Assembly (NCBI GenBank): GCA_037441705.1
Contig: JBBIRR010000008.1
Coordinates: 23,925-87,924, forward strand
From: Ignavibacteriales bacterium
GTDB lineage: Bacteria; Bacteroidota; Ignavibacteria; UBA10030; UBA6906
DNA: 64,000 nucleotides
Direction of reading: 5' to 3'
A program made the translations under genes and the position numbers. This document shows, piece after piece, positions 4,606 to 61,578 of the stretch. A model generated the notes under the pieces. The model made no database searches. It worked only from the letters and a program-made list of their open reading frames with translations, and was not told where the DNA came from. Positions within the stretch are counted from its first letter, which is position 1, and every line of letters begins with the position of its first letter.

Positions 4606-4635
4606 GAAACCCAATGAAACTTCGGGGAACTGTTC

Positions 4636-8457: not shown

Positions 8458-8595
8458 CCTATCAGCCAAAACAGGGTCGGGCGGTGTGGCTTGTGACACA
8501 TCCCCCGAAAGCATTTTATATATCTTGGAACCCACTACGCTTTTGCTTATCATTGGGCAACAACAAACTCCTGGGACACTAACGACGGGATAGCT

Positions 8596-43483: not shown

Positions 43484-44707
43484 ATGGTGCGTCGCTCTGT
43501 GGTGTTTTCTTTCCTTGGCATGGTCGTCCTTGCCGCCGGTTCGTACTTCATCCTGCGTCCTGCCGCCACGCCTCCTCAAGAAACCTCCGCTGCGTCTGGT
43601 GAATCTGCTGCCGACGTCCTTTTTCCGGTGACGGTTGCCGTTGCCGAACAAGGGAATCTCATAAAAAGCATCGCCACCAACGGTACGCTCCGCGCACGAC
43701 GCGAGGTAGAGTTGCTTGCGCGGGTCAGCGGCGATGTTGTCGGGGTGCATGCGCACAACGGCAAGCGTGTGGCACAGGGAGATCTGTTAGTGAAATTGGA
43801 TGATCGGGAGTTTCGACTTGCGTTTGAGAAGGCCTCGGCAGCGCTGCTTGCCGCGCAGATTGAATACCGGACGCTCAGCACGTCGGAGGTGCTTGCCGGG
43901 CCCGATTCGGCGCGTGTGCAGGAAGAACTTGCCCGCGCCCGCGCGCGGCTTGCCGAAGCCGAAAGCGCCTTTCGGGCAAAGAGGATCGACGAGGCCGTAT
44001 TGCTGCGCGCCCGTCGTGAGTACGATGCGGCCATGGCGTATCTGCACGTGGATCGGGGCGACATCATTGCCAACAAGAGCGGACTTGCAGCAGCGCAGGA
44101 AGCACACACCCGCGCCAAACTGGACTTAGAGGCGACGGAACTCCGCTCGCCGTTTGCCGGCTACGTCGGCAACCTTGAGCTGACGCCGGGCAAGCGCATC
44201 CAGGCAGGCACTGCGGTGTGCACCATTGTTGATCTCTCGACGCTCCTGGTAGATGTTGATGTGATTGAAAGCGAAGCGCCGCGTGTGCAGGTGGGGCAAC
44301 GTGCCGAGCTGACTGTTGCGGCCCTGCCGGGCAAGAGCTTCACGGGCAAAGTCCTCACCCGCAACCCGATGATTGATCCGAAAACCAAAACCCTCCGTGT
44401 AACAATAGAACTCACCAACCCTCCGACATCTAACTCATTGATGCCGGGGATGTATGCAACAGTGCGGATACAGACCGAACAGTTTCCCAAGCGCTTGCTT
44501 GTGCCGAAGGCCGCGCTGCTGGTGCGCGACCAGCGAACGTTAGTGTTCGTGGCGCAGCAAGGGCTTGCCAAATGGCACTACGTAGATGTCGAAGATGAGA
44601 ACGAACGCTTCATTGCCATCCGCTCCGGCATCGCGCCGGGCGATACGGTGATTGTGGATGGACACTACACCCTGGCGCATGATGCGAGGATACGCATAGC
44701 ACCGTAG
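43484..44707 (+). CDS. RND efflux periplasmic adaptor (MFP)
   Basis: N-terminal TM, lipoyl half motifs (V.G.V..V..GDLLVKLD; LRSPFAG), hairpin, LMPGMYA, VPKAAL. Confidence 0.93.
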   Translation: MVRRSVVFSFLGMVVLAAGSYFILRPAATPPQETSAASGESAADVLFPVTVAVAEQGNLIKSIATNGTLRARREVELLARVSGDVVGVHAHNGKRVAQGDLLVKLDDREFRLAFEKASAALLAAQIEYRTLSTSEVLAGPDSARVQEELARARARLAEAESAFRAKRIDEAVLLRARREYDAAMAYLHVDRGDIIANKSGLAAAQEAHTRAKLDLEATELRSPFAGYVGNLELTPGKRIQAGTAVCTIVDLSTLLVDVDVIESEAPRVQVGQRAELTVAALPGKSFTGKVLTRNPMIDPKTKTLRVTIELTNPPTSNSLMPGMYATVRIQTEQFPKRLLVPKAALLVRDQRTLVFVAQQGLAKWHYVDVEDENERFIAIRSGIAPGDTVIVDGHYTLAHDARIRIAP

Positions 44708-44743
44708 CTGAAGCAGTCTCCCTCTCACTTGGAGGTATATTTC

Positions 44744-45190
44744 GTGTCAATAGATACCTCAATACTGAAAACTTGGATACGCGAGAACCCGGAGAAAGCA
44801 CTTAGTGCCAAAGTTGTTGCAGTACAATTTAAGGTAAGCGTTCATACGCTGTATAAAGAATTCATCAGAAAGGAGGGTATGTCAGTTGGCCGGTTCATAG
44901 ATGACACACGACTTGAGGCGGTGAAGCGGCTCTTGCTCAGAACGGATAAGAAGGTCTTCGAAGTTGCGCACGAGTTTACATTCGGCCGCGAAGATGTTCT
45001 CGCCCGATGGTTCAAGACCCGAACGGGAATGACCATGAGAGAGTTTCGGGAGAAAAACGGATGGCACCGAAGTGTTGGCGGGGGGGTAAGATTGCAAACT
45101 AAAAGTGCAAACCAAAATTGCAAAGAGAATTTTCTTGATTTCGGGCACGGCGGGATGTATTATGTTGACGACCTGAGGGATAGACTGTGA
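44744..45190 (+). CDS. Stand-alone AraC-family HTH regulator (MarA/SoxS-size)
   Basis: GGAGG RBS + GTG; VA..F.VS..TL...F, RLEAVKRLL..TD..V.EVA, FK..TGMT..EFR. Confidence 0.8.
   Translation: MSIDTSILKTWIRENPEKALSAKVVAVQFKVSVHTLYKEFIRKEGMSVGRFIDDTRLEAVKRLLLRTDKKVFEVAHEFTFGREDVLARWFKTRTGMTMREFREKNGWHRSVGGGVRLQTKSANQNCKENFLDFGHGGMYYVDDLRDRL
45092..45163 (+). promoter_or_regulatory. Cassette-1 operator/promoter: three 13-bp-period repeats + sigma70 promoter
   Basis: TGCAAA at 45093, 45106, 45119; GAGAAT; TTGATT(45135)-17-TATTAT. Confidence 0.72.
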
Positions 45191-45223
45191 TCTTCATTTC
45201 CATTCACACTGAAGCATGAGATC

Positions 45224-45700
45224 GTGCGCACCCTTGCCGAATTCAAAAGATTGCTACCAACGTTTTCTTGTGTGCTGATCGCGGTCATCTTCTTTGTTGC
45301 AGCGATTGACAAGACCGCACATATGGCTCGTTTTGAAAGAGCTCTCGAGGCCCAAGGGATTATTCCGGTGTTCTTCTTGCCGACGGTGGCTAAGGCGATC
45401 GTAGCTTTGGAGTTCATTATCAGCCTCGCTTTGCTGGCTCGGCCGTTCCGCAGGGTTGCCTTGCTCGGAGCTTTGGTTCTGCTTGTTGCCTTTATCGTTG
45501 TTCTTCTGGTTCTTTCGTCGAGCAGTTCGATCAGTGACTGTGGCTGTGGCAGTCTCTTCGCAAATGTCCCTATTCCATGGAAAATTGGACAAGACGTTAT
45601 CATGGTGATTCTTGCGGCCTGGACACTCTACATGCTGAAGCGCAGCAGTCAGCGAATGTGCCCTCAAGGCCCACCATGTCTTGATACCTATTCTCAGTGA
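45224..45700 (+). CDS. MauE/DoxX-family membrane protein
   Basis: Four TMs; AAIDK, conserved Glu in TM2, DCGCG motif. Confidence 0.8.
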   Translation: MRTLAEFKRLLPTFSCVLIAVIFFVAAIDKTAHMARFERALEAQGIIPVFFLPTVAKAIVALEFIISLALLARPFRRVALLGALVLLVAFIVVLLVLSSSSSISDCGCGSLFANVPIPWKIGQDVIMVILAAWTLYMLKRSSQRMCPQGPPCLDTYSQ

Positions 45701-45733
45701 TTGCTAACCTTTCAATACATGTGGAGGTCCAGT

Positions 45734-45985
45734 ATGAAACCCAACAACGTCCTGACAACTGTCGGAATGATGGCCTTCTTGATGGTCATGGTCGTAAGTA
45801 TTTATGTGACATACCAGGAGAAGGCCTACGCGTGTGAGGGAAACTGTTGCGCTCAATGCGGGCGAGACGGAGACGAATGGCGGTGCTTCACACGACTGAG
45901 TTGGGGCGCGAACTGGTGTATGGTGGATGGCCGGGGCGAGTCGTGTACTGTCTTTGGTTCCTGTGGTGGTGGCCCAGCGAAGTAA
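45734..45985 (+). CDS. Secreted Cys-rich micro-protein 1 (8 Cys in about 50-aa mature part)
   Basis: GGAGG RBS; MKPNNVLTTVGMMAFLMVMVVSIYVTYQEKAYA/CEGNCCAQCGRDGDEWRCFTRLSWGANWCMVDGRGESCTVFGSCGGGPAK. Confidence 0.78.
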   Translation: MKPNNVLTTVGMMAFLMVMVVSIYVTYQEKAYACEGNCCAQCGRDGDEWRCFTRLSWGANWCMVDGRGESCTVFGSCGGGPAK

Positions 45986-46008
45986 CCATCATATCAAGAG
46001 GCGAAAAC

Positions 46009-47151
46009 GTGACGTTCGCGGGCGTACTCTCTTCCTGCACCACCATTGCGCGCTTGGGGTTGCTATGTATGTTCCTCAGTGCGTGCGAGCGACGAGCGCA
46101 ACAACCGGCAGCGGAACCGAGGCACGTTTCGACCGAATCTTCGCGTACAGAGACAAGCACCGAAATTCGGCGCCTTCCGCCTCTGCTCAAGGAAGGCCAG
46201 GAAGCCCCCGGTGCGCACAATTATGATTGGCATGACATCAGCACCGATGGGGATGATACACTGTACGTCAGCGACAACTCTCAACTCTGTGTGCGTGTGC
46301 TGGTAGCTGAGTCCGGTCGGCAGGTCGCGCAGTTTGGTCGCAAGGGGCAGGGGCCGGGTGAATTTATGTTCATTGCGCGCGTGAGATACCTGGAAGGACT
46401 TGGACTTGCTGTGCTCGACAACATCCTGCGCCGCATTACCCTGTTCACGAGTGAGGGCAAGGTCATACGAACTGTGCCGTTGGATCGCATGAGCGATGAT
46501 GTTGCTCAGCTGAGTTCCGAAAGTCTGGTCGTCAGCAGCTACAGCCTGGAACAGGGATACAAACCGCTAAGGACGATATCCCTTGCCAATGGCAACGTGG
46601 GTTCGGAATTCGGCGCCACGCTTGAGCCGCAGGTAGGCATTCGCGCACAGATACTGCAGTCGCCCGCTGGGCCCCGAGATATGCTTTTGTATTCTTTTGC
46701 GGGTATGACCCGGATCCTTTACATCCGACACCGTCCCATTTTGATTTACTCGCAGCGTCATCCATATTTTCTCATTCTGTTTCGGGATAGAGATCAAGCT
46801 GGTAAGCGGATCGATGCTGCCCTTCCTTTTTCTACAGCCGACAGTATGGAATATGTTGTCAAGGAGAGTCAACGTACAGCCACAATTCGCCGCAGCGGCG
46901 CGGTGCTTGATCCATTATATGTGGCGGGGAAGAATGCCTTTATTGTGGCAGCATTCAATAGTTCTGCACAAATGAATGTTTTAGATGTTTACAACCTCGA
47001 AGGACAACTCCGAAAGCGCTTGGCGTTGCCCGCCCTGGAGCATGGCGTCAAGCCGGTCTCAGCAGCTTTGCTTCGCGATAGTATCCTGACAATTCTTGTC
47101 CGGGACAAAGACCGGATCTACTGGATCGAGCGGTTCTCGATTATGTTTTAG
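46009..47151 (+). CDS. 6-bladed beta-propeller (NHL/TolB-like) lipoprotein 1
   Basis: Lipobox LSAC; LYVSD, FGRKGQGPGEF, RRITLF..G; start uncertain (GTG 46009 chosen). Confidence 0.8.
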   Translation: MTFAGVLSSCTTIARLGLLCMFLSACERRAQQPAAEPRHVSTESSRTETSTEIRRLPPLLKEGQEAPGAHNYDWHDISTDGDDTLYVSDNSQLCVRVLVAESGRQVAQFGRKGQGPGEFMFIARVRYLEGLGLAVLDNILRRITLFTSEGKVIRTVPLDRMSDDVAQLSSESLVVSSYSLEQGYKPLRTISLANGNVGSEFGATLEPQVGIRAQILQSPAGPRDMLLYSFAGMTRILYIRHRPILIYSQRHPYFLILFRDRDQAGKRIDAALPFSTADSMEYVVKESQRTATIRRSGAVLDPLYVAGKNAFIVAAFNSSAQMNVLDVYNLEGQLRKRLALPALEHGVKPVSAALLRDSILTILVRDKDRIYWIERFSIMF

Positions 47152-47268
47152 CGAGTCCTCATGCGGTGTCAGACGAAGGAGAGCAGAGGCTCGAAGCAGG
47201 ACGTTTTGAATTGCTGAATGCGTACATCATCAGTAACGCACAGCGATTGCTGAGACATCCGGAATGTG

Positions 47269-47415
47269 TCCGCGCCGCCTTGGCAGTCAGTGTTCTTCGT
47301 GTAATGTTCGACACGCACATGTCCCTCAGCTCCCTCTCGACATCCCGCCCCGTCACGGTGCTGATGTTCTACATCGGCGTGGTGATGCCTGGGGTGATCG
47401 TGTTCTTCCATCTGA
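47269..47415 (+). repeat. Direct-repeat copy (truncated gene fragment) of the leader and first ~30 codons of the RND gene at 50936
   Basis: Near-identical to 50885-51032, including exact CATGTCCCTCAGC...CGGCGTGGTGATGC; encodes MSLSSLSTSRPVTVLMFYIGVVM, then diverges and stops. Confidence 0.92.
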
Positions 47416-47461
47416 CTGAGGCGGGGGGCAAACCCAAGTGACGATAGTGTCATGTCCGAAA

Positions 47462-47521
47462 TTGCAAACCGAAAGTGCAAAGAGAATTTTTTTTGACTTG
47501 AAATGTATGCCTTGCTACATT
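47462..47521 (+). promoter_or_regulatory. Cassette-2 operator/promoter
   Basis: TGCAAA at 47463 and 47476; GAGAAT; TTGACT(47493)-17-TACATT with TGn extension. Confidence 0.72.
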
Positions 47522-47565
47522 GGTTGGCGAAATCACTTAATCACCAATTCTTCCGAGGAGGAGTT

Positions 47566-47781
47566 ATGAAGAGGGTCCGTGAGTTTTCTGCCGTTTTACT
47601 CTTGGCATCGGCACTGCTCATTGCAATATTGGTTTCGTTGCCGCGCACGGCATGTTCTGCTCCGCGCTGGACCGTTTGCATCGTCACCGGCGGCGGTGGT
47701 ACGTCCTATTGTGCGGAGTGCCCTTCAGGCAGTAACTGTGTGTCGTGTTCGGGGCAGGATTGCTTTGCCGATGGGGATTGA
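47566..47781 (+). CDS. Secreted Cys-rich micro-protein 2 (6 Cys in about 40-aa mature part)
   Basis: GAGGAGG RBS; MKRVREFSAVLLLASALLIAILVSLPRTACS/APRWTVCIVTGGGGTSYCAECPSGSNCVSCSGQDCFADGD. Confidence 0.8.
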   Translation: MKRVREFSAVLLLASALLIAILVSLPRTACSAPRWTVCIVTGGGGTSYCAECPSGSNCVSCSGQDCFADGD

Positions 47782-47851
47782 ATTCATTCCGAGCAAAATC
47801 AATCAGTGCCGGCCAGATGTCCCTTCAGATCACGCGCTACGACTTTTATCC

Positions 47852-48928
47852 ATGTGCAAGGCTCAACTTCTCACTGTTCTGCATTCGATATTGCTGCTAT
47901 CATGCGGCGAAAAATCGGAACACGCAAGCCCAAAGGTTCCGGCTGCATTTCGTGACAGACTTGCAACGGTTTCGCGCATCGAGGATGTTTTCTCCGAAAA
48001 ACATGCGATTGCCTTGGAGGCTTCTGACAGCAGCTTTGTTGGCGACATCACCTATCTACACATTGCTCCCGATGGGTCTCTTGGGGTCATTCATCGCGCC
48101 AGCCGTGTGCCGGCAATTTTCGATAGCACGGGTCGGTTCGTCGGCAAAGTCGGCAGGGCGGGGAAAGGGCCGGGTGAATTTGGGAGCGCAGCTGCTCTTG
48201 TTTGGGTAGGAGATGAATCGTCGTGGTATGTTGCCGATAATGCCTCTCGGAGGATTTCAGTGTTCGGACGTGATCTGACCTACAACAACAGCTTTTCGGT
48301 CGACGACAGGATTCATTCGATGGAAGTCGGGCCGAAGGGCGCTTTGCTGCTTTTTGCCCCAGGGATGGCGGATGTGAAGAACCTCATTGTTATGATCAGC
48401 CGCGACGGAGAGAAACTGCGTCGCTTCTATGCAACGCCCGCGATCATCAAAGAAGTCCCTTACTACGTTCGAGGCGGCGGGCTTTGTGTAAGTGAAAACA
48501 GGATTTTCACCTCATACTACCTTGACAGTGAACTGCTATGCTTCAATGAAGTTGGAGAATTGATCGCCGCAAGCTCGCTTCAGCCAATGCGCAACTACGT
48601 TTCAGCCGACCTGAGAAAGGTAAGCGACCCCCATGAATTCCTTTACGAATGCACCGGCATTCTTAGAGTGCTCAAAGGTCCGGAACATACGATCGTTGTG
48701 GAGTACGGAAACCTTGTCCTTCAAAAAGAGCGAAAGGATCTCCAACGCCAACTCTACTTAGCGTTCTTTGACTTGAACGGAAAACTCATTGCCAGCGGCA
48801 TCAAGACCGAAGACGAGGTTCTGGCTTCTGACGGCGCCGGAAGCCTGTACTCCGTCCATTACGAGGAGACGGACCGGACAGAACAAAATAACCCAGTGCT
48901 CCACAAATGGTCAGTCTCTCCCCGATAA
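47852..48928 (+). CDS. 6-bladed beta-propeller lipoprotein 2
   Basis: Lipobox LLSC; VGRAGKGPGEF, WYVAD...RRISVF. Confidence 0.8.
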   Translation: MCKAQLLTVLHSILLLSCGEKSEHASPKVPAAFRDRLATVSRIEDVFSEKHAIALEASDSSFVGDITYLHIAPDGSLGVIHRASRVPAIFDSTGRFVGKVGRAGKGPGEFGSAAALVWVGDESSWYVADNASRRISVFGRDLTYNNSFSVDDRIHSMEVGPKGALLLFAPGMADVKNLIVMISRDGEKLRRFYATPAIIKEVPYYVRGGGLCVSENRIFTSYYLDSELLCFNEVGELIAASSLQPMRNYVSADLRKVSDPHEFLYECTGILRVLKGPEHTIVVEYGNLVLQKERKDLQRQLYLAFFDLNGKLIASGIKTEDEVLASDGAGSLYSVHYEETDRTEQNNPVLHKWSVSPR

Positions 48929-49527
48929 CAGTCTCATCGGCTTCCTGCAAAGTTCTGTTTTTGATGGCTGCCTTCGGCGTATGCATCCTTACGTGGTTGA
49001 ATCTGATGGCAAAGGAGAATATTGACGAACTCAAGCACGAGGTGGGATCTCTCAGGGAGTACAAAGAGCAAACACTGCGAGAAAAAGCAACCATAGGTAC
49101 GCAGTTACCTGTCAGTCTCCAGATAGCATTGCGCGCCGCCTCATATTCCACTTCCGAAGAACCTCAGTTCTGGCTCATCTACTTTGTTTCGGCGTCTTTG
49201 TGCAGACCTTGTTTTCAAGAAGACATTCAGGTTTTTCGTAATATGGTTCAGCGAAAGGGGAAATGTCTTGGCGTTTTCTTTGTCGGTCCAAGCCTCTCGA
49301 GCCGCGAGTTCTTGGGAATAAAGTCCTTTTTTGATGTGAATTTCCCGGCTACGCCAATTTCTTTTGACCCTGGTGCCCTGGGCATAGATAAGTACCCCAC
49401 GACTCTTCTTACAGACCGGCAAGGTGTCATACTTCTTCAAGCTGCGACAGTTGCCCACGATACGTTGTCTGCGTCTATTTCCCGACTTGCTTTTTATCAG
49501 CTGGTTGAGAACCTTTCCTGTAAATGA
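48907..49527 (+). CDS. Membrane-anchored thioredoxin-fold protein (TlpA/MauD-like)
   Basis: N-terminal TM + coiled coil; LIYFVSASLCRPC; YPTTLLTDRQGVI cis-Pro motif. Confidence 0.7.
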   Translation: MVSLSPITVSSASCKVLFLMAAFGVCILTWLNLMAKENIDELKHEVGSLREYKEQTLREKATIGTQLPVSLQIALRAASYSTSEEPQFWLIYFVSASLCRPCFQEDIQVFRNMVQRKGKCLGVFFVGPSLSSREFLGIKSFFDVNFPATPISFDPGALGIDKYPTTLLTDRQGVILLQAATVAHDTLSASISRLAFYQLVENLSCK

Positions 49528-49567
49528 TGGCAGTTGTTCCGCCAACTCGAATGCAGTCGGGATTGAA

Positions 49568-50881
49568 ATGTTCGTCAATAACATGTCTTTATCTTGTTCT
49601 CTATCTTTGATTCACACTTCCAAGCAGCGCGCCTTGAAAATCGCTGTTGTGTTATTACTTGGAACACCTCAACAGGGTCCTGCACAAGGTTTCTACGAAC
49701 GAGCTATTGAACATTTTGCCGCGGGTGAATATCGTTCAGCCCTCTCGTTCTTCGACTCTCTTCTCACACAACAACCGGGGAACCACCGGTTCCATTATCT
49801 CGGTGGATTGTGCAGATACTATATGGCCGACTATCAAGGGTCGGCAAAAGCAATGGAGGCTGCACTTCGTGGCGACTCCTTGTCGTCGCAGTATCACTTC
49901 GGATTAGGCAGGGCATATGCGGCCCTGAATCTTTTTCCGGCAGCCCGCGTTGCGTTTGAGAATGCAATCCGGCTGGACACGAATGCCGCTGTTGCGCGTC
50001 TTGAGCTGGTGCGCGTGTTGTGCATGATGAAACAGTTTGATGAGGTGAAACATTTGTTGGGTCTGACTCCAACGTTTGATGAACTCTTGGTGGTGGGAAA
50101 GGCCCTCCTCGGTGCAGGTAAGCTTCAGGAAGCGTTAGAGTATGGAACACGGGCTGTTTCGATGGACTCGACAACGTTCTCGTCCCGGCTTCTTCTTGCA
50201 GATGCGTATTTCGCTGCGCAACAGTACGATGACGCATTTGCTCTTTATGCTTCTCTGATGATGGAGGACCAGGATGCAGCTCATGTTGCACGGAAGCTGG
50301 CTTTCTGTTATGAGAAGCAAGGCTCACGCGGCATTCCGGTCGCGATCCTGATGATGCAAAAGTACATGAGACTCACCGGCGATACGACGGCAACCGATCT
50401 TGCTCGGATCGGATCGTGGTTCTACGCTCGCCGACACTTTGATTCTTCGGCTGTGTACTATGCGCTTGCCGCGGCGCGTGATTCAACGAGCGCGGAAGTG
50501 CGCTACAATTACGGACTTGCACTTTTCCGGCTGGGCAAGCTCCGTGACGCGGAGCGCGAACTTCGTACAGCAGAGCAGCTTTCCACGTCCGCGATGAAGT
50601 TTCAGGTGTCAATTGCCAATACGATTGCCGCCGTGCTGCTCCAACGAAAAGCGCCAAGTCAGGCGATTCAGTACTATCAGAAAGCATTGCGTATGGATCC
50701 GGCGAATCACGAGGCGATGTACGAGCTGGCGGTTTCGTACGACAGATCAAGGAAACAGACACAAGCCATCCGGTGGTACAAGAAATTCCTCAATAGTGTA
50801 CCACCCCGCCGTCAAGACGATGAGATGGTGGAGAATGCCCGCGCGCGTCTAGAGGAACTCGGTAGGCTCGGTAATCGCTAA
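49568..50881 (+). CDS. Exported tetratricopeptide-repeat protein
   Basis: Multiple TPR patterns (YNYGLALFRLG, AIQYYQKALRMDPANHEAMYELA); start may be TTG 49634. Confidence 0.85.
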   Translation: MFVNNMSLSCSLSLIHTSKQRALKIAVVLLLGTPQQGPAQGFYERAIEHFAAGEYRSALSFFDSLLTQQPGNHRFHYLGGLCRYYMADYQGSAKAMEAALRGDSLSSQYHFGLGRAYAALNLFPAARVAFENAIRLDTNAAVARLELVRVLCMMKQFDEVKHLLGLTPTFDELLVVGKALLGAGKLQEALEYGTRAVSMDSTTFSSRLLLADAYFAAQQYDDAFALYASLMMEDQDAAHVARKLAFCYEKQGSRGIPVAILMMQKYMRLTGDTTATDLARIGSWFYARRHFDSSAVYYALAAARDSTSAEVRYNYGLALFRLGKLRDAERELRTAEQLSTSAMKFQVSIANTIAAVLLQRKAPSQAIQYYQKALRMDPANHEAMYELAVSYDRSRKQTQAIRWYKKFLNSVPPRRQDDEMVENARARLEELGRLGNR

Positions 50882-50884
50882 GTA

Positions 50885-51032
50885 TCCGCGCCGCGCAGGC
50901 GAGTCAGTGTTCTTCGTGTAATGTTTGACAGGCTCATGTCCCTCAGCTCCCTCTCGACATCCCGCCCCGTCACGGTGCTGATGTTCTACATCGGCGTGGT
51001 GATGCTTGGCGTTATCGCGTTCTTCAGTCTGA
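50885..51032 (+). repeat. Second copy of the direct repeat (intact RND 5' end)
   Basis: Matches 47269-47415. Confidence 0.92.
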
Positions 51033-54000
51033 GCGTAGACTTCCTTCCTCCCATCAAAATCTCGAAGCTGACGGTTCAAACATCCTATCCCAACACATCG
51101 CCGGAAGAAGTTGAGCGACGAGTGACGCAACCGGTGGAGGCGGCGCTTGCGACGGTGATTGGCGCTAAGCGGGTCGCTTCCGTCTCGCGCGGCGGACAGT
51201 CGGTGGTGACCGTGGAATTCTACTGGGGAACAGACATGGATTTTGCCCTGCTGGAAGTCCGTGAGAAGTTGGACCAGATGCGCGGCGCGCTGCCGCGTGA
51301 AGCCGGCCGCCCGACAATTCTGCGCGTCGATCCATCCACCGAGCCGATCATGACAATTGTGCTGGCTGCCGCCCCGAAACAGGAGCCGCGCATGCAGACG
51401 GTGGTGGACACTCTTCCGCTTCAGTCATCCCGACAAACGTTGTCGGGCTTTGCTGCGCACAGGGTGACGCCCGGCGGAAGCGACTTGACGGAGCTGAAAG
51501 AAACGGCGCGGGCACTCGTCAAGAAGCGCATCGAGCAGATTGACGGCGTTGCGCAGGTGAGCGTCCTGGGCGGCGTCGAGCGGGAGATTCACGTCATCGC
51601 AGACGAGCAGAAGTTGGACGCGCTCGGCATTTCACTCGACCAGGTGTCGCAGGCGCTCGCGCAGTCGAATGTGAGCCTCCCCGGCGGCTCGATCAGAAAG
51701 GGGCTGTTCCGTTATCCACTGCGCGCGTTGGGCGAGTTTGCGTCGCTGGACGACATTCGCTCGGTTGTCGTGCACACAACGCCTGCAGGACGGCTCGTCC
51801 GCATCTCCGACGTTGCCGTTGTATGTGACACGATCAAGGAACGCACGGGCATCACCCGCTACAACGGCAGTGAAGTTATCGGTCTGCACGTCCGCAAAGA
51901 GGCGGGCACGAATACGATTGAAGTCTCGCGCACGATTCACGAAGTGCTGAACCAGCTTCGCCGCGACTATCCTACGCTGCAGCTTAGCGTCATTGCCGAT
52001 CAGGCGGAGTTCATCGCGCAATCCATCGCCGATGTGCAGCAGGCAATTGCCATCGGAGCGGTGCTGGCGTTTCTCGTGCTCTTCCTCTTTCTGCGCCGGG
52101 CACGCTATCCGTTCATCATCGGCGTTACGATTCCCGTCTCGCTGCTTGCAACGTGCATCGTCATGTATTTTCTCGACATCAATCTCAACATCATCTCGCT
52201 CACGGGACTTGCGCTCGGCATCGGGATGTTGGGAGATAACGCCATCATCGTGATCGAAAATGTCACCCGTCTGCGCGAGAAAGGTATGCCGCTGCTCGAT
52301 GCCGTGTTGGAAGGCGCCAAAGAAATCAATCTCGCCGTCACCGCATCAACACTGACCAACGTTGCCATCTTTCTGCCGATAATCTTTGTCGAAGGCGTCG
52401 CATCGAAACTCTTTGTGGATATGGGCGTGACGATGTCGGTCTCGCTGCTCGTCTCGTTGTTTGTTGCCGTCACGCTCGTGCCGATGCTGCTCTCGCGCGA
52501 GCGCTCACGTCCGGCACAGGGGAGCGGCGGTGTCCTTGATCGCCTCGTTGTGCGAGTGAGGGAAACGAGTGAAGCGGCTTTGGACAGCTACCTCAGGTGG
52601 GGACTTGAGCATCGGTGGAAGGTGATCGGCTGGACGCTCCTCGCGTTTGCCGCAGCAATTGCAGTGGCCTTCACCATCCGCAGCGAGCCGGCGCCGGATA
52701 TTGATCAGAGTCGCTTTACGATTCAGATGACGTTTCCCAAAGGCGCGACGCTCGAAGCTGTGTCGAACAGCGTTGCGGAGCTTGAACGCCGCCTGCTTGA
52801 CGTGCGCGATGTCGAAGGCGTCTATTCTTCCATCGGCATCACGGATGAGACGAGCATCTGGCGCATCGGTGATGCCGCGCTCGAACGAGCGACGCTGGAG
52901 GTGCGAGTGAAGCGCGGTGCTTCGACGCGGAGTGTTCTGGAGGACGCGAGAACCATTGTCGCCTCGTTGCAGCGAGGGACGGCGGGCGTGGAGTTCGCGC
53001 TGCGTTCGCGCGGCACAACGTTCGAGCAAATCCTTCGCCCGGACGTGAACGACCTGCGGGTTCGGGTCACGGGCAAAGACCCGTCGGCTGTGGCACGGAT
53101 TGCCGCAAGCTTCTCCCTCCAACTGCAAGCGGTGCAAGGCGTTACGGACATCCGCACGTCGCAGCAGCTCGGCACGCCTGAGTACAGAATCGAGATTGAC
53201 CGCGATGAGGCGAAGCGTCACGGTTTGAGCGTGAAGAGCATTGCGGCGTTCATCAAGCAGCAGGTGCAAGGTGAAGAGGCGACGGCGCTGAGCGACTTCG
53301 ATCGAAAGGTGACAATCCGCGTTCGCAACGCGCGGGTCGACGATTTTGCATCGGTGCTCGATGCGAAGATTGGCGATGTCCCGCTGCGGAAGTTGGTGCA
53401 CTGGCAAGAGACGACAGGCGAAGGAGAAATCTGGCGCGAGAACCAGCAGCGCGCACACGTGATACTGGCCAACGTGCATGGACGTTCGTTGGGAAGTGTT
53501 GTGGATGAACTCGAGCGGCGCGCGGCGTCGGCGGTGCTGCCCGCCGGATATGCAATCAGTATCGGCGGAGAGAATGAGGAGATACGCGAGTCGTTCCGCA
53601 GTCTCTTCATTGTCATTCTGCTTTCGATCTTTCTCGTGTACATGATTCTTGCGGCGCAGTACGAATCGGTGCTCTACCCGTTCGTCATTTTACTCACGAG
53701 TCCGTTAGCGTTCATCGGCGCCATAGGCGCGATGGCGCTGACGGGACAAGCTTACAATGTCATGTCGCTCATCGGACTGGTGATCATGATCGGGGCGGTG
53801 GATAACGATGCGGTGATTGTGGTGGATGTGATCACGGCGTTGCGTCGGAGCGGTGTGCCGCTGCACGATGCAATTCGCAACGGCATGCAACAACGCCTTC
53901 GCCCGATTCTGATGACAACGGCGACAACGGTGCTCGGCATTATTCCGCTCTTCTTCGAGTTCGGCACCGGCTCCGAGCTTGTGCGGGCACTGACGGTGCC

Positions 54001-54088
54001 GATTGTGGGGGGACTCGTTGCGTCCACGCTGTTCACCGTAGTGGCCATCCCGGTTGTGTACACGTTCATTGATAGACGAGCCGCGTAG
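50936..54088 (+). CDS. RND permease 1 (AcrB/AcrD/AcrF family)
   Basis: RPV, SPEEVE..VT.P.E, GMLGDNAIIVIEN, RLRPILMTT; about 1050 aa. Confidence 0.95.
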   Translation: MSLSSLSTSRPVTVLMFYIGVVMLGVIAFFSLSVDFLPPIKISKLTVQTSYPNTSPEEVERRVTQPVEAALATVIGAKRVASVSRGGQSVVTVEFYWGTDMDFALLEVREKLDQMRGALPREAGRPTILRVDPSTEPIMTIVLAAAPKQEPRMQTVVDTLPLQSSRQTLSGFAAHRVTPGGSDLTELKETARALVKKRIEQIDGVAQVSVLGGVEREIHVIADEQKLDALGISLDQVSQALAQSNVSLPGGSIRKGLFRYPLRALGEFASLDDIRSVVVHTTPAGRLVRISDVAVVCDTIKERTGITRYNGSEVIGLHVRKEAGTNTIEVSRTIHEVLNQLRRDYPTLQLSVIADQAEFIAQSIADVQQAIAIGAVLAFLVLFLFLRRARYPFIIGVTIPVSLLATCIVMYFLDINLNIISLTGLALGIGMLGDNAIIVIENVTRLREKGMPLLDAVLEGAKEINLAVTASTLTNVAIFLPIIFVEGVASKLFVDMGVTMSVSLLVSLFVAVTLVPMLLSRERSRPAQGSGGVLDRLVVRVRETSEAALDSYLRWGLEHRWKVIGWTLLAFAAAIAVAFTIRSEPAPDIDQSRFTIQMTFPKGATLEAVSNSVAELERRLLDVRDVEGVYSSIGITDETSIWRIGDAALERATLEVRVKRGASTRSVLEDARTIVASLQRGTAGVEFALRSRGTTFEQILRPDVNDLRVRVTGKDPSAVARIAASFSLQLQAVQGVTDIRTSQQLGTPEYRIEIDRDEAKRHGLSVKSIAAFIKQQVQGEEATALSDFDRKVTIRVRNARVDDFASVLDAKIGDVPLRKLVHWQETTGEGEIWRENQQRAHVILANVHGRSLGSVVDELERRAASAVLPAGYAISIGGENEEIRESFRSLFIVILLSIFLVYMILAAQYESVLYPFVILLTSPLAFIGAIGAMALTGQAYNVMSLIGLVIMIGAVDNDAVIVVDVITALRRSGVPLHDAIRNGMQQRLRPILMTTATTVLGIIPLFFEFGTGSELVRALTVPIVGGLVASTLFTVVAIPVVYTFIDRRAA

Positions 54089-54162
54089 GGCGATCTCGCC
54101 AACGGTGTTGAACTCTTACGGATGGGAAGGGCGAACGATTCGTTCCGCTCTCTCCCCATCAA

Positions 54163-54501
54163 CTATTCGTAGACTTCGATGAAGCCATACTCTTCCGAGA
54201 CTTCGAGAGCTTCGATGTCGTTCTTTCGCTTAAGGAGGACTTCTTTCAGAAAGGTAGTTTGTTGATTTCCCATGCGAAGGAGTACCAGTTTCGGTGGAAA
54301 ACCTCGTTGAAGCTGCAGGCGAAGAAAATCTTCATCATTTCTCACGATTGTGTACTCGTTTGTTTTGGCGTACTGCCAGATTTCTTCATCTGCGGCGGGT
54401 TGAGACGTCGGGATGTTCTTGACATGTTCGATACCGGGATAGTGGGCGGCCAAATGTTGGCACAATCGCCACGAAAGGTTGGCATCGAGCAAGAGTTTCA
54501 T
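54163..54501 (-). CDS. DUF5615 PIN-like toxin (VapC45-like)
   Basis: MKLLLDANLS, DEEIWQYA, D.DF, LRMGN. Confidence 0.88.
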   Translation of the reverse strand: MKLLLDANLSWRLCQHLAAHYPGIEHVKNIPTSQPAADEEIWQYAKTNEYTIVRNDEDFLRLQLQRGFPPKLVLLRMGNQQTTFLKEVLLKRKNDIEALEVSEEYGFIEVYE

Positions 54502-54502
54502 T

Positions 54503-54730
54503 TCAGGTCAGAACGATTCTGCCTGATTGCTCGCGATGTGCAGCAAATGCTAATGCAGCGCGAATGCTCTCCTCACTCAACTCAGGGTAGTCTTGCAGGA
54601 TGTCTCCGATCGACATACCCGAAGCAAGCCAGGTGAGTATGTCTGCAACGGCGATGCGCGTGCCTCTGATGCAGGGTTTGCCGAAGCGGATTGAGGGATC
54701 AATGGAGATATGTTCGGTGAATGGTTTCAT
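54503..54730 (-). CDS. DUF433 antitoxin
   Basis: IDPSIRFGKPCIRGTRIAV..IL..LASG...ILQDYPEL....IRAALAFAA. Confidence 0.92.
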   Translation of the reverse strand: MKPFTEHISIDPSIRFGKPCIRGTRIAVADILTWLASGMSIGDILQDYPELSEESIRAALAFAAHREQSGRIVLT

Positions 54731-54845
54731 AACTGCCGATATCAATATACCACCGTTGCAGTTGTCCCGCAAGTAGTCGGACGGGTAAGCCTAGACTGGC
54801 GTTCACATCAATACTCACATTCTCTCATTGGTTAGGAGGTGAGCC

Positions 54846-55180
54846 ATGGGAACCGCACTCGACGATGTGATGATCTGGATCGATCTGCATCTTGATGCAA
54901 TAGAAACTATTACTGACGTTGCAGCCCACTTCGGAGTCGCTGAGGAAACACTCCGAAAGACTTTTGCGCGGGCCGAAGGTGTACCGCTCTCCGATTATCT
55001 CCGCAAGAAACGGGTAGAAGTCATGAATCATCTGCTTGCAACCAGCGACTCGAAATGTTATGCCATTTGCGGCAAGTAGGCATCAAGAGAGAGGACACGG
55101 GTGTGAAGCTGTTCAAACGGATGACGATGAATGAATACAGACGATTGCACGGCAACAGCGTCAAGAAGTGGGGGGGGTGA
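54846..55180 (+). pseudogene. Frameshifted stand-alone AraC regulator, paralogue of 44744..45190
   Basis: AGGAGG RBS; ORF stops at 55079 but homology continues in another frame as QVGIKREDTGVKLFKRMTMNEYRRLHG...WGG* (compare FGREDVLARWFKTRTGMTMREFREKNG). Confidence 0.78.
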
Positions 55181-55210
55181 GCTTAAACGACGATGATGTT
55201 ATGTCCCCAA

Positions 55211-55282
55211 TTGCCAACCGCTATCGCCAACCGCAATTGCCAAGAGAATGTGCTTGACTTCGCTCTTTGACGAGACTATCTT
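55211..55282 (+). promoter_or_regulatory. Cassette-3 operator/promoter
   Basis: YGCCAA at 55212, 55225, 55238; GAGAAT; TTGACT(55254)-17-TATCTT. Confidence 0.7.
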
Positions 55283-55562
55283 TGTTCAGCGCGCAAGTCA
55301 ACAAAGGATGCAGGAGATTACCGGAAGAATCCTCATCAATCCTCAGGCAGGAAAGGTCATCGTCTCGGGAATGACGTTCGTCTTTCTAAAGCCCTCTGTC
55401 TTTACCGCTGGGAGACGAGGAGTTGAGAACCAAAAAGCGGGAGCTATCCCCGGGAGGTAACATGTTTGCTTCAACACACCTTCAAGGCGCAAAATTTCCC
55501 CAGGGAATTCTTCGTCAGCAGGTTTACTCAATGACCCATCCCAAGGATTGTCGTCTGTTTGC

Positions 55563-56609
55563 ATGAAAACGCGCTCCATATATCTGGCTAGCTTTATATG
55601 TATGATTGTCGCAGGTTATTTCGTTGGATACAGATTTGGACCTGAAACCGGAGACGCCAGTGTCATTTCCCAACCCGGGAGCCTAAAATGGAAAGTGCCA
55701 TCCTTCGTAAACTCCGGACCTCGTGTTTGGAAGTCTGTGAATACAAGAATCTTGAGAATAGTGTCTCAAGAAACTCAGCCGTTGTACCATCCGACGACGC
55801 TCAAAGTCGATCAAGAGGCAAATATTTTTGTCATGGATTGGGGTGATCTGAGGATAAAGAAATACTCCTCCAATGGTCGTCTCCTTAATGTTGTGGGAAA
55901 GGGGAAGGGTAGTGGGCCTGGTGAGTTCCTGAATCCGTTGTGTTTTGACATTGCGGCAAACGGAAGTATCTGGGTATGTGATTCGGAAACAGGAAGGCTG
56001 AGTGTATTCAGGCACGACGGCGTACTTGAGCAGACAATAGGAACCACCCTTATTCCTTCGAGGGTGGTAGCGTTGACCGCGGGAAACTCCATCGTGCTTG
56101 GCCAGCACGGTGATGAGCTGTTTGCATTACTTGATTCTGAAGGAACCATACTCCGAAGGTTCGGCAGCTTCGTGACGGACCAGATCAAGAACAAGCTCAT
56201 CCTTGACGGATGGATAGCCCGTAACGGGAATGACGGGTTCGTCTATGCGCCGCTGTACGCAAGTATTCTCGCTGGTTATTCATCGCACGGGAGAGAGAAA
56301 TTCATTGTCGAGCTCGTGGATCCGGTCCCTCGACCCGCCCTGACCGTGACGAAGCAAGGCGTATACATCAACCCTGCGACTCCACTCGTTACCTTGTCCG
56401 TCAACAGATGGGGTGAACATGTGTACCTGCTGAATCGGTCTGCCTCGGTAGGCAGGGATGAGAATGCAAGTATTATTGATGCATACAATGCTGAGGATGG
56501 CAAGTACGCATACTCATTGAAGATTCCTGAACGTTCGCGTGAAGCATACATTACAGCACAAGCAGTTTATACGCTTGCTGATACAAGCATTACCGTTTGG
56601 AAACGGTAG
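55563..56609 (+). CDS. 6-bladed beta-propeller protein 3 (N-terminal membrane anchor)
   Basis: IFVMD, GKGKGSGPGEF.NP, IWVCD...RLSVF..DG. Confidence 0.82.
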   Translation: MKTRSIYLASFICMIVAGYFVGYRFGPETGDASVISQPGSLKWKVPSFVNSGPRVWKSVNTRILRIVSQETQPLYHPTTLKVDQEANIFVMDWGDLRIKKYSSNGRLLNVVGKGKGSGPGEFLNPLCFDIAANGSIWVCDSETGRLSVFRHDGVLEQTIGTTLIPSRVVALTAGNSIVLGQHGDELFALLDSEGTILRRFGSFVTDQIKNKLILDGWIARNGNDGFVYAPLYASILAGYSSHGREKFIVELVDPVPRPALTVTKQGVYINPATPLVTLSVNRWGEHVYLLNRSASVGRDENASIIDAYNAEDGKYAYSLKIPERSREAYITAQAVYTLADTSITVWKR

Positions 56610-56760
56610 GCAGAGAAGTGAGTGCACCGGCTAATGGGCCTTCTGCTAAACGACACAATCACGTCATTTCACGAGTTGCTTTTCCTCACACGAACCGTTA
56701 TTATGATAACGACACATTCAGCAAGCTGGCCAGCAACCTTCCCTTCTTTGTGTAGAAGAG

Positions 56761-59700: not shown

Positions 59701-59922
59701 GTGGACGAACTTGTGCTTGCCTCGGCCGACCGGCTTCGTCCGATTCTGATGACCTCGATGACCACCATCGGTGCGTTGCTTCCTCTCTTACTCTGGAGCG
59801 CCCGATCGAGTGTGTGGTACTCGCTTGCCCTCGGAACGATCGGAGGGCTGCTCTCCTCAACTCTCCTGACTCTTCTTGTTGTGCCGACAGTGCTTGCGGT
59901 CGTGTACAAGGTGCGGTCGTAG
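56761..59922 (+). CDS. RND permease 2 (AcrB/AcrD/AcrF family)
   Basis: RPVA, SPETVE.FVT.PIE, VVDDSIVV, RLRPILMTS; 1053 aa. Confidence 0.95.
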   Translation: MSILVPNLLHRPVAVSMICGAVVLAGLFAFTRLPIELAPSIDFPSLTINTSWGSTSPETVEQFVTAPIEEVVNTVAGVKNVRSRSSEGRSSVDVEFEQGTDMSFARLELYEKLAALAETFPAGVRSPQIAPYVPEDFKELQGFLTFALSSDLNAAALRTYAMERIVPGLMSVKGVSRVEILGGEERELHVLLDPKRVTAAGLTVDAVLAELRDVEFSAPVGMVHEGTARMILAVSNTNARTDDILDLPLCVKGSALLRLRDVATVRDTIAETRSIYRIDGRPSITLVVDKEPHVNTIEVADRVLARLKELVAAFPGNLSFTKVVDKSEQMREELENLRREVFFSILCIWLVMVVALGNLRAPLVLMSSLVISLAGTLLVFWLLGLSLHLLTLAGLVLGFGRVVDDSIVVLDNIQRRSAGMVTDGGIVHAVAQVRLPVIASTITTVGALLPIAFLPPDLKPYFREFGLAVGIALVMSLFVSFTIIPVMIRNAPDALKTSGRFDAQGDRILSAYRHVLSWCLRWRKSVLAVVVLAFGLPVWLLPERIDADHLPARIYNLVFSSEPVIAARPSINMLLGGALHLFSTKVMKGEVWEWGNETYLVVRVGFPQGTELQRYDDVARLVEREVQAAPEGVSRMTTRVVDDYASVRVDFDEKSAMTALPYVMKNRLTVLAAQTGGATISVAGFGPGFYSGGESAPTFYVKVLGYNYTKVKELAEQFKQKLERNPRIADVDIDRTFGRWPKSTEVVMRFDRDAIAAHHLTVADLMPWVGSMTRGTVDWHTFTLGGERLPLLAKIQGFDSASVQDISRERIVNARSEIVPLGTLIRLDEQRVMSQITRENQQYVRWISFEYRGPYRYGDQFVESTINAMTLPHGYKFDRSFTWFILSERDKSSMLWLALVALLIVFIVTAALYESFTKPFLVILTVPLSLIGLFLAFYWTDTPFGRGGYASVMLLMGIVVSNAILLIDYVAKRFQSHPASVDELVLASADRLRPILMTSMTTIGALLPLLLWSARSSVWYSLALGTIGGLLSSTLLTLLVVPTVLAVVYKVRS

Positions 59923-61110: not shown

Positions 61111-61578
61111 ATGGTGGAGGAATTCATCAATGTTCTTCATATTCTCGCAACTGCCGTCTGGATTGGTGGCGCGTCGTTCGTGCATTTCATTCTGAAACCG
61201 GCCTCGCGTGCGATCGACGCGCAGCAGGCGGGCAAGCTGTTTGGGCTTGTCGCTCAACGCTTCTCGAAGGTAGCATGGGGAAGCATCATCACTCTTCTGA
61301 TCACCGGGTATCTGAAAACACCCAACGGACTGATGTTCGACACGTCGTCCGAGATGGGAGTGATGCTGACGATCAAGCACATTCTGGTGGCGGGAGTCCT
61401 TGTCGTTGGATTGACGATCGGGTTGTATGTTGTGCCCAAGATGCAGAAAGCGGCGCCGAAGCCGGGTGAAGCGCCGTCGGCGACGTTCATCGGATATCAA
61501 AACAAACTCAACACGTTTGCCTCTCTCAACCTCGTCCTGGGCGTTCTGGTGGTGATCGTTGCATCGATGTTGTGGTAA
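61111..61578 (+). CDS. CopD/DUF4149-like 4-TM membrane protein
   Basis: LHIL...WIGG motif, TG and K motifs, four TMs. Confidence 0.65.
   Translation: MVEEFINVLHILATAVWIGGASFVHFILKPASRAIDAQQAGKLFGLVAQRFSKVAWGSIITLLITGYLKTPNGLMFDTSSEMGVMLTIKHILVAGVLVVGLTIGLYVVPKMQKAAPKPGEAPSATFIGYQNKLNTFASLNLVLGVLVVIVASMLW

Follow-up and report, generated by a model that had tools for sequence, protein, structure and literature searches.

Within a 64,000-nucleotide (nt) stretch of an Ignavibacteriales genome (GenBank assembly GCA_037441705.1, contig JBBIRR010000008.1, positions 23,925 to 87,924 of the forward strand; hereafter the window) lies a pump operon whose intergenic slots hold exchangeable modules, built from a regulator gene, a small cysteine-rich peptide gene, genes for putative disulfide-forming proteins and a beta-propeller gene. 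From 43484 to 59922 the plus strand carries, in order, a membrane fusion protein (MFP) gene, module 1, a copy of the start of the first resistance-nodulation-division (RND) permease gene, module 2, RND1, module 3 and RND2, and this order is interrupted between RND1 and module 3 by a minus-strand DUF5615/DUF433 pair. The modules occupy both intergenic slots, MFP/RND1 and RND1/RND2, of an MdtABC-like operon. Genes were called from open reading frames (ORFs) together with Pfam and NCBIfam: 53 window ORFs were scanned in passes at E<=0.01 and E<=1e-5, and 22 proteins of the region were tested against NCBIfam and Pfam at E<=0.01. Signal peptides were assigned by eye and a simple rule, with no dedicated predictor. 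These calls bear out the genes of modules 1-3, and their positions, as an earlier note on this DNA had given them. The features of the locus are:

43484..44707, plus strand: RND periplasmic adaptor (MFP), left conserved flank of the slot (TIGR01730 5.9e-60, above cut-off; HlyD_D23)
44744..45190, plus strand: mini-AraC 1, MarA-sized, helix-turn-helix (HTH) only (HTH_18 2.8e-15; RamA/SoxS/MarA models below cut-off)
45089..45163, plus strand: operator 1, with three direct 13-bp TTGCAAAC-type repeats, and promoter TTGATT-17-TATTAT
45224..45700, plus strand: MauE-family membrane protein with a CGC motif (PF07291 E 1.6e-23, 83.9 bits, cut-off 27)
45734..45985, plus strand: pep1, precursor of 83 aa (Sec-type signal, AYA|C site, 50-aa core with 8 Cys)
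46009..47151, plus strand: prop1, NHL six-bladed propeller lipoprotein (lipobox LSAC; DUF5128 25.4 bits, cut-off 22.9)
47285..47415, plus strand: duplicate of the RND1 start (stub), 131 nt, 93% identical to 50902-51032
47416..47521, plus strand: remnant of an AraC tail, with operator 2 (two repeats) and promoter TTGACT-17-TACATT
47566..47781, plus strand: pep2, a 71-aa precursor with 6 Cys in the mature core
47852..48928, plus strand: prop2, NHL propeller lipoprotein (lipobox LLSC; DUF5128 35.3 bits)
48907..49527, plus strand: membrane-anchored CxxC (CRPC) thioredoxin-fold protein, as a single sequence without a Pfam or NCBIfam match
49568..50881, plus strand: exported tetratricopeptide repeat (TPR) protein of module 2 (TPR families; start uncertain, the ORF opens at 49424)
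50921..54088, plus strand: RND permease 1 (ACR_tran 8.4e-223)
54163..54772, minus strand: DUF5615 and DUF433 pair, toxin-antitoxin-like (Pfam 5.1e-29 and 1.5e-26)
54846..55175, plus strand: broken AraC 3 (residues 1-77, a stop at 55077-55079, the remainder in another frame to the GGG tail)
55208..55282, plus strand: operator 3, with three TTGCCAAC-type repeats, and promoter TTGACT-17-TATCTT
55563..56609, plus strand: prop3, NHL propeller with an N-terminal anchor (NHL and TolB_like above cut-offs)
56761..59922, plus strand: RND permease 2, right conserved flank (ACR_tran 2e-163)

The pump has a paired-permease RND architecture, with an RND_mfp adaptor followed by two ACR_tran paralogues in one operon, all on the plus strand. 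This is the MFP, RND, RND order of the MdtABC operon, and the MdtA, MdtB and MdtC models are among the matches; all three miss their equivalog cut-offs (MdtC 418 bits against 1774, MdtB 388 against 1584, MdtA 93 against 391). Judged by these sequence scores, the pump is MdtABC-like in architecture, yet it does not consist of MdtA/B/C orthologues, and it differs further from the MdtABC operon in having accessory cassettes with their own promoters in both intergenic slots. RND1 scores higher with a multidrug model (654 bits) than with the CusA/CzcA model (483 bits, cut-off 701). The pump genes themselves are well conserved, the MFP being 80% identical in same-genus genomes and RND1 and RND2 82% and 82-84% identical in relatives. 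RND1 starts 40 nt past the TPR gene, and a promoter search of this gap found none, so the cassette promoters probably drive the pump genes. No outer-membrane-factor (TolC-type) gene adjoins the window operon. Directly upstream of the MFP, an ORF at 42565-43350 (plus strand) has no family match, is 59-69% identical in the related loci L013 and L014 and ends in GVMF; its product looks like a small outer-membrane beta-barrel. The DUF5615/DUF433 pair is missing from the L013 slot, where RND1 and RND2 lie ~200 nt apart. In metagenome run X2, a contig diverges from the window upstream of 54801, and 54141-54607 is uncovered.

The earlier note had proposed that all three modules share one grammar of an AraC gene or its remnant, a G tract, a 13-bp operator, a promoter, a small ORF and a propeller. 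An AraC gene or remnant, an operator, a promoter and a propeller do recur in each module. The small peptide ORF is confined to modules 1 and 2, and module 3 contains no Cys-rich ORF. The G tract does not survive as an element: it consists of glycine codons for the GGG tail that closes the conserved part of the AraC proteins, in the window as in its relatives, and is therefore not a separate signal. The supposed AraC remnant of module 2 does contain the last AraC bases, but its bulk is the 131-nt copy of the RND1 start, which reaches from 19 nt upstream of RND1 through codon 37. None of the fetched loci contains a relative of the 133 nt at 47152-47284. Mini-AraC 1 is 148-153 aa long, and HTH_18 spans residues 31-108 of 153 with no other domain. 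RamA, SoxS and MarA models match it at 28-40 bits, far under their cut-offs. Homologues 55-61% identical to it stand at the head of relatives' cassettes. An AraC-type regulator also matches the QhpR model weakly (E 0.0044). For the broken AraC 3, L014 holds a full-length counterpart to which the first 77 residues are 74% identical. A homologue of the module 2 TPR protein (E 5e-85) is encoded beside propellers in L055. Like the pump activators MarA, SoxS and RamA, the mini-AraCs consist of a predicted DNA-binding domain only, of ~130-150 residues, and are encoded beside a pump; unlike them, they come as one regulator per cassette inside the operon, with direct 13-bp repeats as the predicted operator.

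Each operator-promoter element comprises two or three direct 13-bp TTGCAAAC-type units, GAGAAT, a TTGAYT -35 hexamer, a 17-nt spacer and a -10 hexamer, so placed that the repeats abut the -35 of a sigma-70-like promoter in all three modules. The 3.83-Mb genome contains three copies of this element, all within the window locus, and nine matches to the pattern GC[AC]AAGAGAAT, three of them in operator context. A fourth match to the repeat pair, on contig C51 between LacI-type regulator and dUTPase genes, was rejected as chance. Promoter-like sites across the region are not above chance (10 found, 7.3 +/- 2.6 expected); three of the ten occupy homologous places in the modules. Behind each AraC gene in four related genomes, ~50 nt of the operator are 85-91% conserved. 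Positions 47420-47499 are 76-81% identical to AraC-end/operator segments of L013, and operator 3 is 97% identical to L020 over 34 nt.

The gene content of these slots, its variability between genomes and its recombination scars can be read directly from the DNA. With the MFP as query (E<=1e-40), matches were found in 9/31 related genomes, the window genome included. Gathering homologous loci around this anchor, a check that the earlier note had suggested, recovered variable cassettes in the matching slots, and its view of the modules as true cassettes holds in that relatives carry different ones in the same places. This is the case in the same-genus loci L013, L014, L015 and L017 and in L018 from another genus, which taken together contain AraC or MauE genes, small Cys-rich ORFs, propellers and CxxC proteins. 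L013 has two stacked cassettes, the first with AraC, an 8-Cys peptide, a propeller and a CGSC protein and the second with AraC, a 4-Cys peptide, a propeller lipoprotein and a CKPC protein. In L014 a cassette upstream of the MFP carries MauE and a peptide of 6 Cys, plus a propeller that shares 38% identity with prop3; downstream of the MFP are two more, one part-deleted and the other in the order propeller, CTSC protein, peptide. In L015 AraC is accompanied by a propeller lipoprotein, a peptide with 6 Cys and a CMSC protein. In L018, whose MFP is 37% identical, the MFP and RND genes are separated by a Cys-bearing ORF, a gene for a propeller lipoprotein and one for a CPTC protein. L017 fills the slot with a much larger cassette (694-9207, minus strand), in which AraC and operator are followed by genes for an ABC transporter, for a Peptidase_S8-DUF1611 fusion and for a small lipoprotein, and by those for a DUF5128 propeller and a PP-binding protein.

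The scars are found where the cassettes meet. Stacked cassettes of L013 and L014 are divided by a 5' stub of RND1 plus a 3' fragment of the MFP gene. The two loci have an AraC gene in common (90.8% nt identity) with unrelated genes downstream of it. Together with the window stub that is fused to an AraC tail, these features place the breakpoints at the operator and at the RND1 start. The pattern of stubs and fragments fits a single crossover of a circular piece, or homology-facilitated illegitimate recombination between two alleles of the locus. A metagenome contig from the independent run X4 joins 47179 to 50899, with a side of 169 and with 26 other letters between, so that there prop1 runs straight into RND1 and module 2 is absent. 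Three joints from run X2 (45066 to 47435, 45144 to 50934 and 51068 to 45087) were not used, since their sides are 30-42 letters and they lie at repeated elements. In L020 an orthologue of prop3 (83% identical) is preceded by an operator and by a MauE gene plus a small frameshifted ORF that together take up ~770 nt, whereas the window has 219 unrelated nt in place of the MauE gene and small ORF. This comparison identifies module 3 as a decayed cassette that has kept its propeller and lost its MauE and peptide genes. No integrase matched among the 53 ORFs scanned, and no inverted repeats of at least 12 nt occur at any cassette border. Integron gene cassettes were rejected, with no IntI among those 53 ORFs and no attC-like inverted repeats at the borders. 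Many propeller matches in relatives lie within ~1 kb of a contig end (for example in G049, G118, G039, G199 and G230); assemblies seem to break there, as expected of strain-variable or repeated regions.

The peptides are hypervariable. ORF reading and database searches bear out Sec-type signals, even Cys counts (8 and 6) and unrelated cores for pep1 and pep2, all three of which had been proposed earlier. Ribosome-binding sites are strong in both: GGAGG stands 5 nt before the pep1 ATG, and GGAGGAG lies upstream of the pep2 start. In a 5.8-billion-cluster protein database pep1 has no relative, and it has no match in the ESM Atlas either (best score 0.82). Pep2 has one homologue in the same database, 86% identical, which retains all 6 core Cys and lacks the Cys at the cleavage site. 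In the core of a peptide common to L013 and L014, changes are 5 synonymous and 1 non-synonymous. Both comparisons speak for coding constraint. No Pfam family matched any of 30 peptides (28 class-level ones plus pep1 and pep2), and no Met- or His-rich motifs occur in the window peptides. NVEALA proteins, small proteins encoded next to Bacteroides propellers, were a lead for the window peptides that was not borne out, and the family (PF14055) was rejected with 0/30 peptides matching at E<=1. Elsewhere in the class, precursors in L056, L060, L061, L063 and L071 have a common leader (a membrane helix, then L..LG..I.LF....A) before unrelated Cys cores, and up to 3 such precursors stand in tandem. 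In L056 and L063 they have as neighbours proteins of 613-634 aa that combine an O-antigen-ligase-like (Wzy_C) domain with TPR repeats, a hint of glycosylation or other modification of the peptides.

Two cassette products belong to families associated with disulfide chemistry. The module 1 membrane protein is a MauE by its PF07291 score and carries the motif CGC, of the CXC type, in the loop preceding its final helix. According to a 2026 preprint, two MauE homologues substitute for DsbB in Escherichia coli and require their CXC motif, and 8.2% of MauE entries are fused to thioredoxin-superfamily domains (10.64898/2026.03.05.709764). The window protein resembles these in family, in the CXC motif and in the thioredoxin fusions of homologous modules, a C-terminal CxxC domain being present on 3/5 long MauE homologues in class-level loci; it differs in being an extra copy inside a cassette, with an activity that is predicted. 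From family membership and that preprint (10.64898/2026.03.05.709764), we infer a redox role for the cassette MauE and thioredoxin, in which MauE would be a DsbB-like oxidase. A second MauE gene, housekeeping-looking and on another contig (C12:77824-78327, beside a gene for a 516-aa multi-pass membrane protein), makes the cassette copy the extra one. With two MauE genes and no DsbB or VKOR match in the window genome, MauE may be the general disulfide oxidase of the organism.

Across 10 homologues of the cassette CxxC protein, the two Cys are the sole invariant columns. The profile of this family matches ResA (4nmu, E 1.1e-9) as well as StoA and DsbE, and through it the protein is seen to be of the ResA/TlpA/DsbE type, with a thioredoxin fold, CxxC and an N-terminal membrane anchor. 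The CGC motif, the preprint (10.64898/2026.03.05.709764) and the MauE-thioredoxin fusions make it plausible that, as the earlier note had supposed, the two proteins work as a folding pair. The window propellers hold 1-3 Cys each, which leaves the peptides as the only Cys-rich cassette products and the obvious clients of MauE and thioredoxin.

All three window propellers carry GxGPGEF, and sequence comparison upheld both this shared motif and the high divergence that had been ascribed to them, at ~20% pairwise identity (prop1 against prop2, 20%). PF17170 matches only prop1, prop2 and prop3 in the whole genome, and a single-sequence search of the genome with prop3 returned prop3 alone. Their assignment to the six-bladed NHL family comes from DUF5128 for prop1 and prop2 and from NHL and TolB_like for prop3, all over cut-off. 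An AlphaFold2 model of prop1 is a six-bladed NHL propeller with a predicted local distance difference test (pLDDT) score of 92. Its nearest structure is Brat NHL (Z 25.8, root-mean-square deviation 2.6 over 259 residues), and the NHL binding domains of Brat, Mei-P26, TRIM2 and TRIM71 are neighbours at Z 22-26, followed by PAL (Z 21.4), a Bacteroides DUF4221 protein (Z 21.1) and, at Z 19.7-21.4, lactonases with PAL. The plain NHL fold, nearest to the Brat/TRIM NHL binding domains, leads us to read prop1 as a binder. Near-invariance across 137 homologues is confined to Gly, Pro, Glu and Asp residues in the repeat motif, which gives no hint of an active site. The N-termini of 136 homologues are lipobox-like in 28 and otherwise hydrophobic in 79. 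The prop1 model also aligns to SOQ1 (Z 19.4) and NHLRC2 (Z 19.3), proteins that likewise bring together a thioredoxin fold of the ResA kind and an NHL propeller. There the two are fused, in eukaryotic or plastid proteins, whereas the window has separate genes, its propeller is structurally nearer to Brat/TRIM NHL, and the cassette thioredoxin profile matches SOQ1 weakly (E 0.23).

A profile of 22 propellers (E<=1e-8) found matches in 112/301 genomes of the same class, although this profile also detects generic NHL repeats; in a 1.84-billion-protein library giant NHL proteins top the list, and a scan of genome contigs gave 4 loci, 2 of them generic NHL matches. From the class we took 20 regions, chosen among the top matches with genomes of several matches favoured, and these contain 44 propeller ORFs of at least 280 aa. 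A small same-strand ORF whose product has 2 or more Cys and begins with a hydrophobic stretch adjoins 28/44 of them, and a MauE gene lies within 2.5 kb of 23/44. Even Cys counts characterise 28/32 of the adjacent peptides (binomial p 1.9e-5), compared with 29/48 control small signal-like ORFs from these regions. MFP/RND genes are present in 9/20 regions, always on the module strand. The metagenome sample is the best 80 of 328 confirmed loci. Propeller ORFs of 280-480 aa are present in 74/80 of these, often arrayed, with as many as 7 to an array; pump genes occur in 10/80, and 6/80 have the order MFP-propeller(n)-RND. Close prop1 orthologues (P0002-P0004) were not among the returns of the metagenome scan.

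The linkage of such modules to pumps thus recurs, in 9/20 class regions and 10/80 of the best metagenome loci, in keeping with what the earlier note had expected. Pump and module genes share a strand in 18/19 loci that have both, in the orders MFP-cassette-RND, RND-RND-MFP-cassette and cassette-RND-MFP-RND, distant genomes included. The propeller-linked pumps are 29-45% identical to window RND1, against 24-31% for five other RND paralogues in the window genome. In ten metagenome loci (L082, L083, L101, L108, L111, L115, L116, L120, L149 and L151) one or two conserved 4-Cys small membrane-like proteins are encoded directly upstream of ~320-aa propellers; these small proteins and their shorter propellers are a separate, conserved peptide-propeller family.

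We are now able to propose a mechanism for the cassettes, which we hold tentatively, as a possible rather than a probable account. In it the peptides would be oxidatively folded by their own MauE and thioredoxin, bound by the adjoining propeller as toxin/immunity- or ligand/holder-like pairs, and exchanged by recombination. A complete cassette would begin with a MarA-sized AraC activator acting on its own operator of 2-3 repeats. It would then supply a hypervariable peptide of 40-50 residues, exported by Sec and even in its Cys count, folded in the periplasm by MauE and thioredoxin, together with an extracytoplasmic NHL propeller, often a lipoprotein, that would serve as the non-enzymatic cognate binder of the neighbouring peptide. 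Peptide and propeller may act as a polymorphic toxin/immunity or ligand/holder pair, for which the pump would provide exit or protection. Cassettes would be gained, stacked, swapped and decayed by recombination, with the AraC-operator segment and the ends of the pump genes as homology arms. Binding of peptide by propeller, the biological role of the pair and its use of the pump are the inferential parts of this scheme.

A predicted complex of a cognate pair, which had been put forward as a check, lends weak support to the binding step. One pair, the pep1 core with prop1, was predicted in three runs alongside 3 controls and scored a median of 0.35 (runs 0.57, 0.35 and 0.10), the best control scoring 0.02, with partner pLDDT of at least 45 and agreement between runs on at least 67% of contacts. 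The score mark used is reached by 58/80 solved complexes and 2/110 mismatched pairs; at scores of 0.60 or less it is reached by 7/80 solved complexes and by both of the passing mismatches. Bacteriocin and polymorphic-toxin loci have cognate and orphan immunity genes, and heat-stable enterotoxins leave the cell via Sec, Dsb and a tripartite pump. The retention of the module 3 propeller after loss of its peptide and MauE genes is the pattern of orphan immunity genes. Hypervariable exported peptides, a variable partner gene, stacking, decay and a partner kept after peptide loss all recall toxin/immunity loci, and the Sec signal, predicted disulfides and adjacent pump recall enterotoxin export. 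In contrast to known toxin/immunity loci, the window has no known immunity family, its partner is an NHL propeller and its pump is of the RND rather than the ABC type. We would place the locus among polymorphic exported-peptide loci, with new parts and a new genomic setting. In the literature searched, we found no published description of peptide-propeller-foldase cassettes in an RND operon.

Several observations speak against this proposal. The score for the complex is weak, and the fold of pep1 itself within it is uncertain. No recognisable toxic motif is present in any peptide. In one L014 cassette the propeller gene is truncated but the peptide gene is still there, which suits an essential immunity role poorly. 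For an AcrB-type RND pathway, 4-5 kDa is a large size for a peptide, which makes export through the RND pump doubtful, and ResA-type thioredoxins are usually reductants. In the metagenome sample Cys-bearing small ORFs adjoin the propellers in 11/80 loci only, and models for MauE, thioredoxin and AraC, built on 3-7 sequences and liable to miss distant members, matched in 0/80. The propeller arrays without Cys peptides imply that the propeller can work without a peptide encoded beside it, and the MFP-propeller(n)-RND operons without peptide genes make the propeller, rather than the peptide, the pump's constant partner.

These last points lead to the main rival, less likely in our view but with an appreciable chance of being right, in which the propellers are accessory periplasmic parts of a paired-RND pump, acting in substrate capture or as detoxifying proteins of differing specificity, and the peptides, MauE and thioredoxin were added in particular lineages, where they play a part that is separate or modulating. 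It draws strength from L100, L144, L146, L150 and L152, where MFP, propeller(n), RND1 and RND2 follow each other at gaps of 16-23 nt with no peptide genes, from the propeller arrays adjoining RND genes in L099, L119, L125 and L126, from the common strand and closer similarity of the linked pumps, and from the lactonases and PAL among the structural neighbours of prop1. However, catalytic residues are not conserved across the 137 homologues, most of the class-level propellers sampled do adjoin a Cys-rich ORF, and extreme divergence with swapping between close relatives is unusual for a pump subunit; we know of no propeller-type subunit of an RND pump. On a broader idea, which we consider unlikely, NHL propellers would be a widespread and so far undescribed class of specificity subunits of paired-RND pumps, each recognising one disulfide-knotted peptide, from its own cell or a competitor, and coupling it to the pump. 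Alternatively, the pump operon might be a mere landing site whose flanks give homology arms, with no functional tie to the cassettes. Recombination through the pump genes is evident from the RND1 and MFP stubs at cassette junctions, the region has also received an unrelated toxin-antitoxin-like pair, and a pump gene was not found in 11/20 class-level regions. Against this stand the recurrence of the association in differing gene orders, distant genomes and metagenomes, and the 40-nt TPR-RND1 gap with its lack of a promoter and its implication that cassette promoters drive the pump; such a landing site is distinctly improbable.

Other rivals give the peptides or propellers a different chemistry. 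The cassettes could be modules for peptides ribosomally synthesised and modified post-translationally (RiPPs) or bacteriocins, with the propeller as a maturation factor (a leader-binding protein or a PAL-like lyase) and not a binder of the mature peptide. Conserved leaders precede hypervariable Cys cores in 2-3 tandem copies in L061, L063 and L068, L017 has an ABC transporter, S8 peptidase and PP-binding protein added to its cassette, both L056 and L063 encode Wzy_C-TPR proteins, and PAL is a structural neighbour of prop1. A genome-mining survey also lists candidate RiPP families with mauE and mauD (PMC7794033). The window peptides nevertheless have plain Sec-type signals and no conserved leader, the rSAM, YcaO, LanM, MNIO and C39 families are without a match among the 53 window ORFs, as the earlier note had remarked of these enzymes, and propeller arrays without peptide genes are left unexplained. 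The metal ligands of PAL are not conserved in the 137-homologue alignment. We therefore regard RiPP modules as improbable. Double-glycine-leader bacteriocins were rejected on the Sec-type N-termini and on finding no C39 or ABC transporter in the window region, and PADLOC anti-phage defence was rejected with 0 families for 11 proteins scanned (E<=0.001).

Propeller and peptide together might instead form a two-subunit periplasmic enzyme like methylamine dehydrogenase or quinohaemoprotein amine dehydrogenase. In those enzymes a small cross-linked subunit sits on a propeller subunit, which is seven-bladed, and MauE and MauD are required. Two sources state that MauE and MauD are needed for maturation of the small subunit (PMC7794033; 10.64898/2026.03.05.709764). 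The window encodes the same four kinds of product as mauB/E/D/A, namely a propeller, MauE, a thioredoxin-fold protein with CxxC and a small exported polypeptide rich in Cys, an AraC-type regulator resembles QhpR weakly, and the complex score of pep1 with prop1 would give this enzyme weak support as well. But the window propeller is a six-bladed NHL propeller, and its peptides have 40-50 residues, are mutually unrelated, lack a conserved Trp pair and are swapped between strains, where a housekeeping enzyme would not swap between close relatives. MauA, MauB, MauG, QhpC, QhpD and QhpG models match no cassette protein; the methylamine dehydrogenase (mau) system as such was rejected, the MauA, MauB and MauG models being unmatched in the 22 region proteins at E<=0.01. 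We consider such an enzyme very improbable. Lowest of all we place a CusF-like role, in which the peptides would be periplasmic metal-binding chaperones feeding a metal-exporting RND pump. Cys-rich peptides inside an RND operon, the CusA/CzcA match of RND1 and a CopD-domain gene at 61111-61578 would suit it. That match lies below its cut-off and is outscored by the multidrug model, even Cys counts and a MauE of DsbB-like kind suggest disulfides rather than free thiols, and the sequences are hypervariable and free of Met- or His-rich motifs, which together leave this role scarcely credible.

Elsewhere in the window, the minus strand at 61592-63942 carries a GatD gene (TIGR02153 517 bits, equivalog level) and, after it, a gene with a GatB_Yqey domain. 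The two make a GatDE-like pair, an amidotransferase of the archaeal type, here in a bacterial genome. At 4636-10855 (plus strand), genes for a carbamoyltransferase and a small SxtJ-like protein come after a split carbamoyl-phosphate synthase large chain. A large exopolysaccharide cluster fills 12564-37564, with Wza-, Wzz-, Wzy- and flippase-type genes, glycosyltransferases and two GH9 cellulase-like genes. One GH9 gene has a near-cut-off match to a type IX secretion sorting domain, consistent with an FCB-group organism.

The comparison of loci indicates that cassette arrays can arise without an integrase, by recombination through conserved flanking genes, and the many unrelated disulfide-rich peptides of 40-50 residues are candidates for activity screens. 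If the pairs are cognate, they would represent a new polymorphic family of secreted peptides with a new type of partner, the NHL propeller, and a natural example of a cassette carrying its own DsbB-like oxidase. They would also provide a first functional context for the large families of DUF5128/NHL lipoproteins, for accessory MauE copies and for the MFP-propeller-RND operons of sediment metagenomes. Should the propellers prove to be specificity subunits, an efflux pump would become a peptide exporter and immunity device, and strains would diversify by swapping peptide, propeller and foldase cassettes through recombination of pump genes. Chlorobi- and Ignavibacteria-type bacteria, and sediment communities too, would then possess a new mode of interbacterial antagonism.

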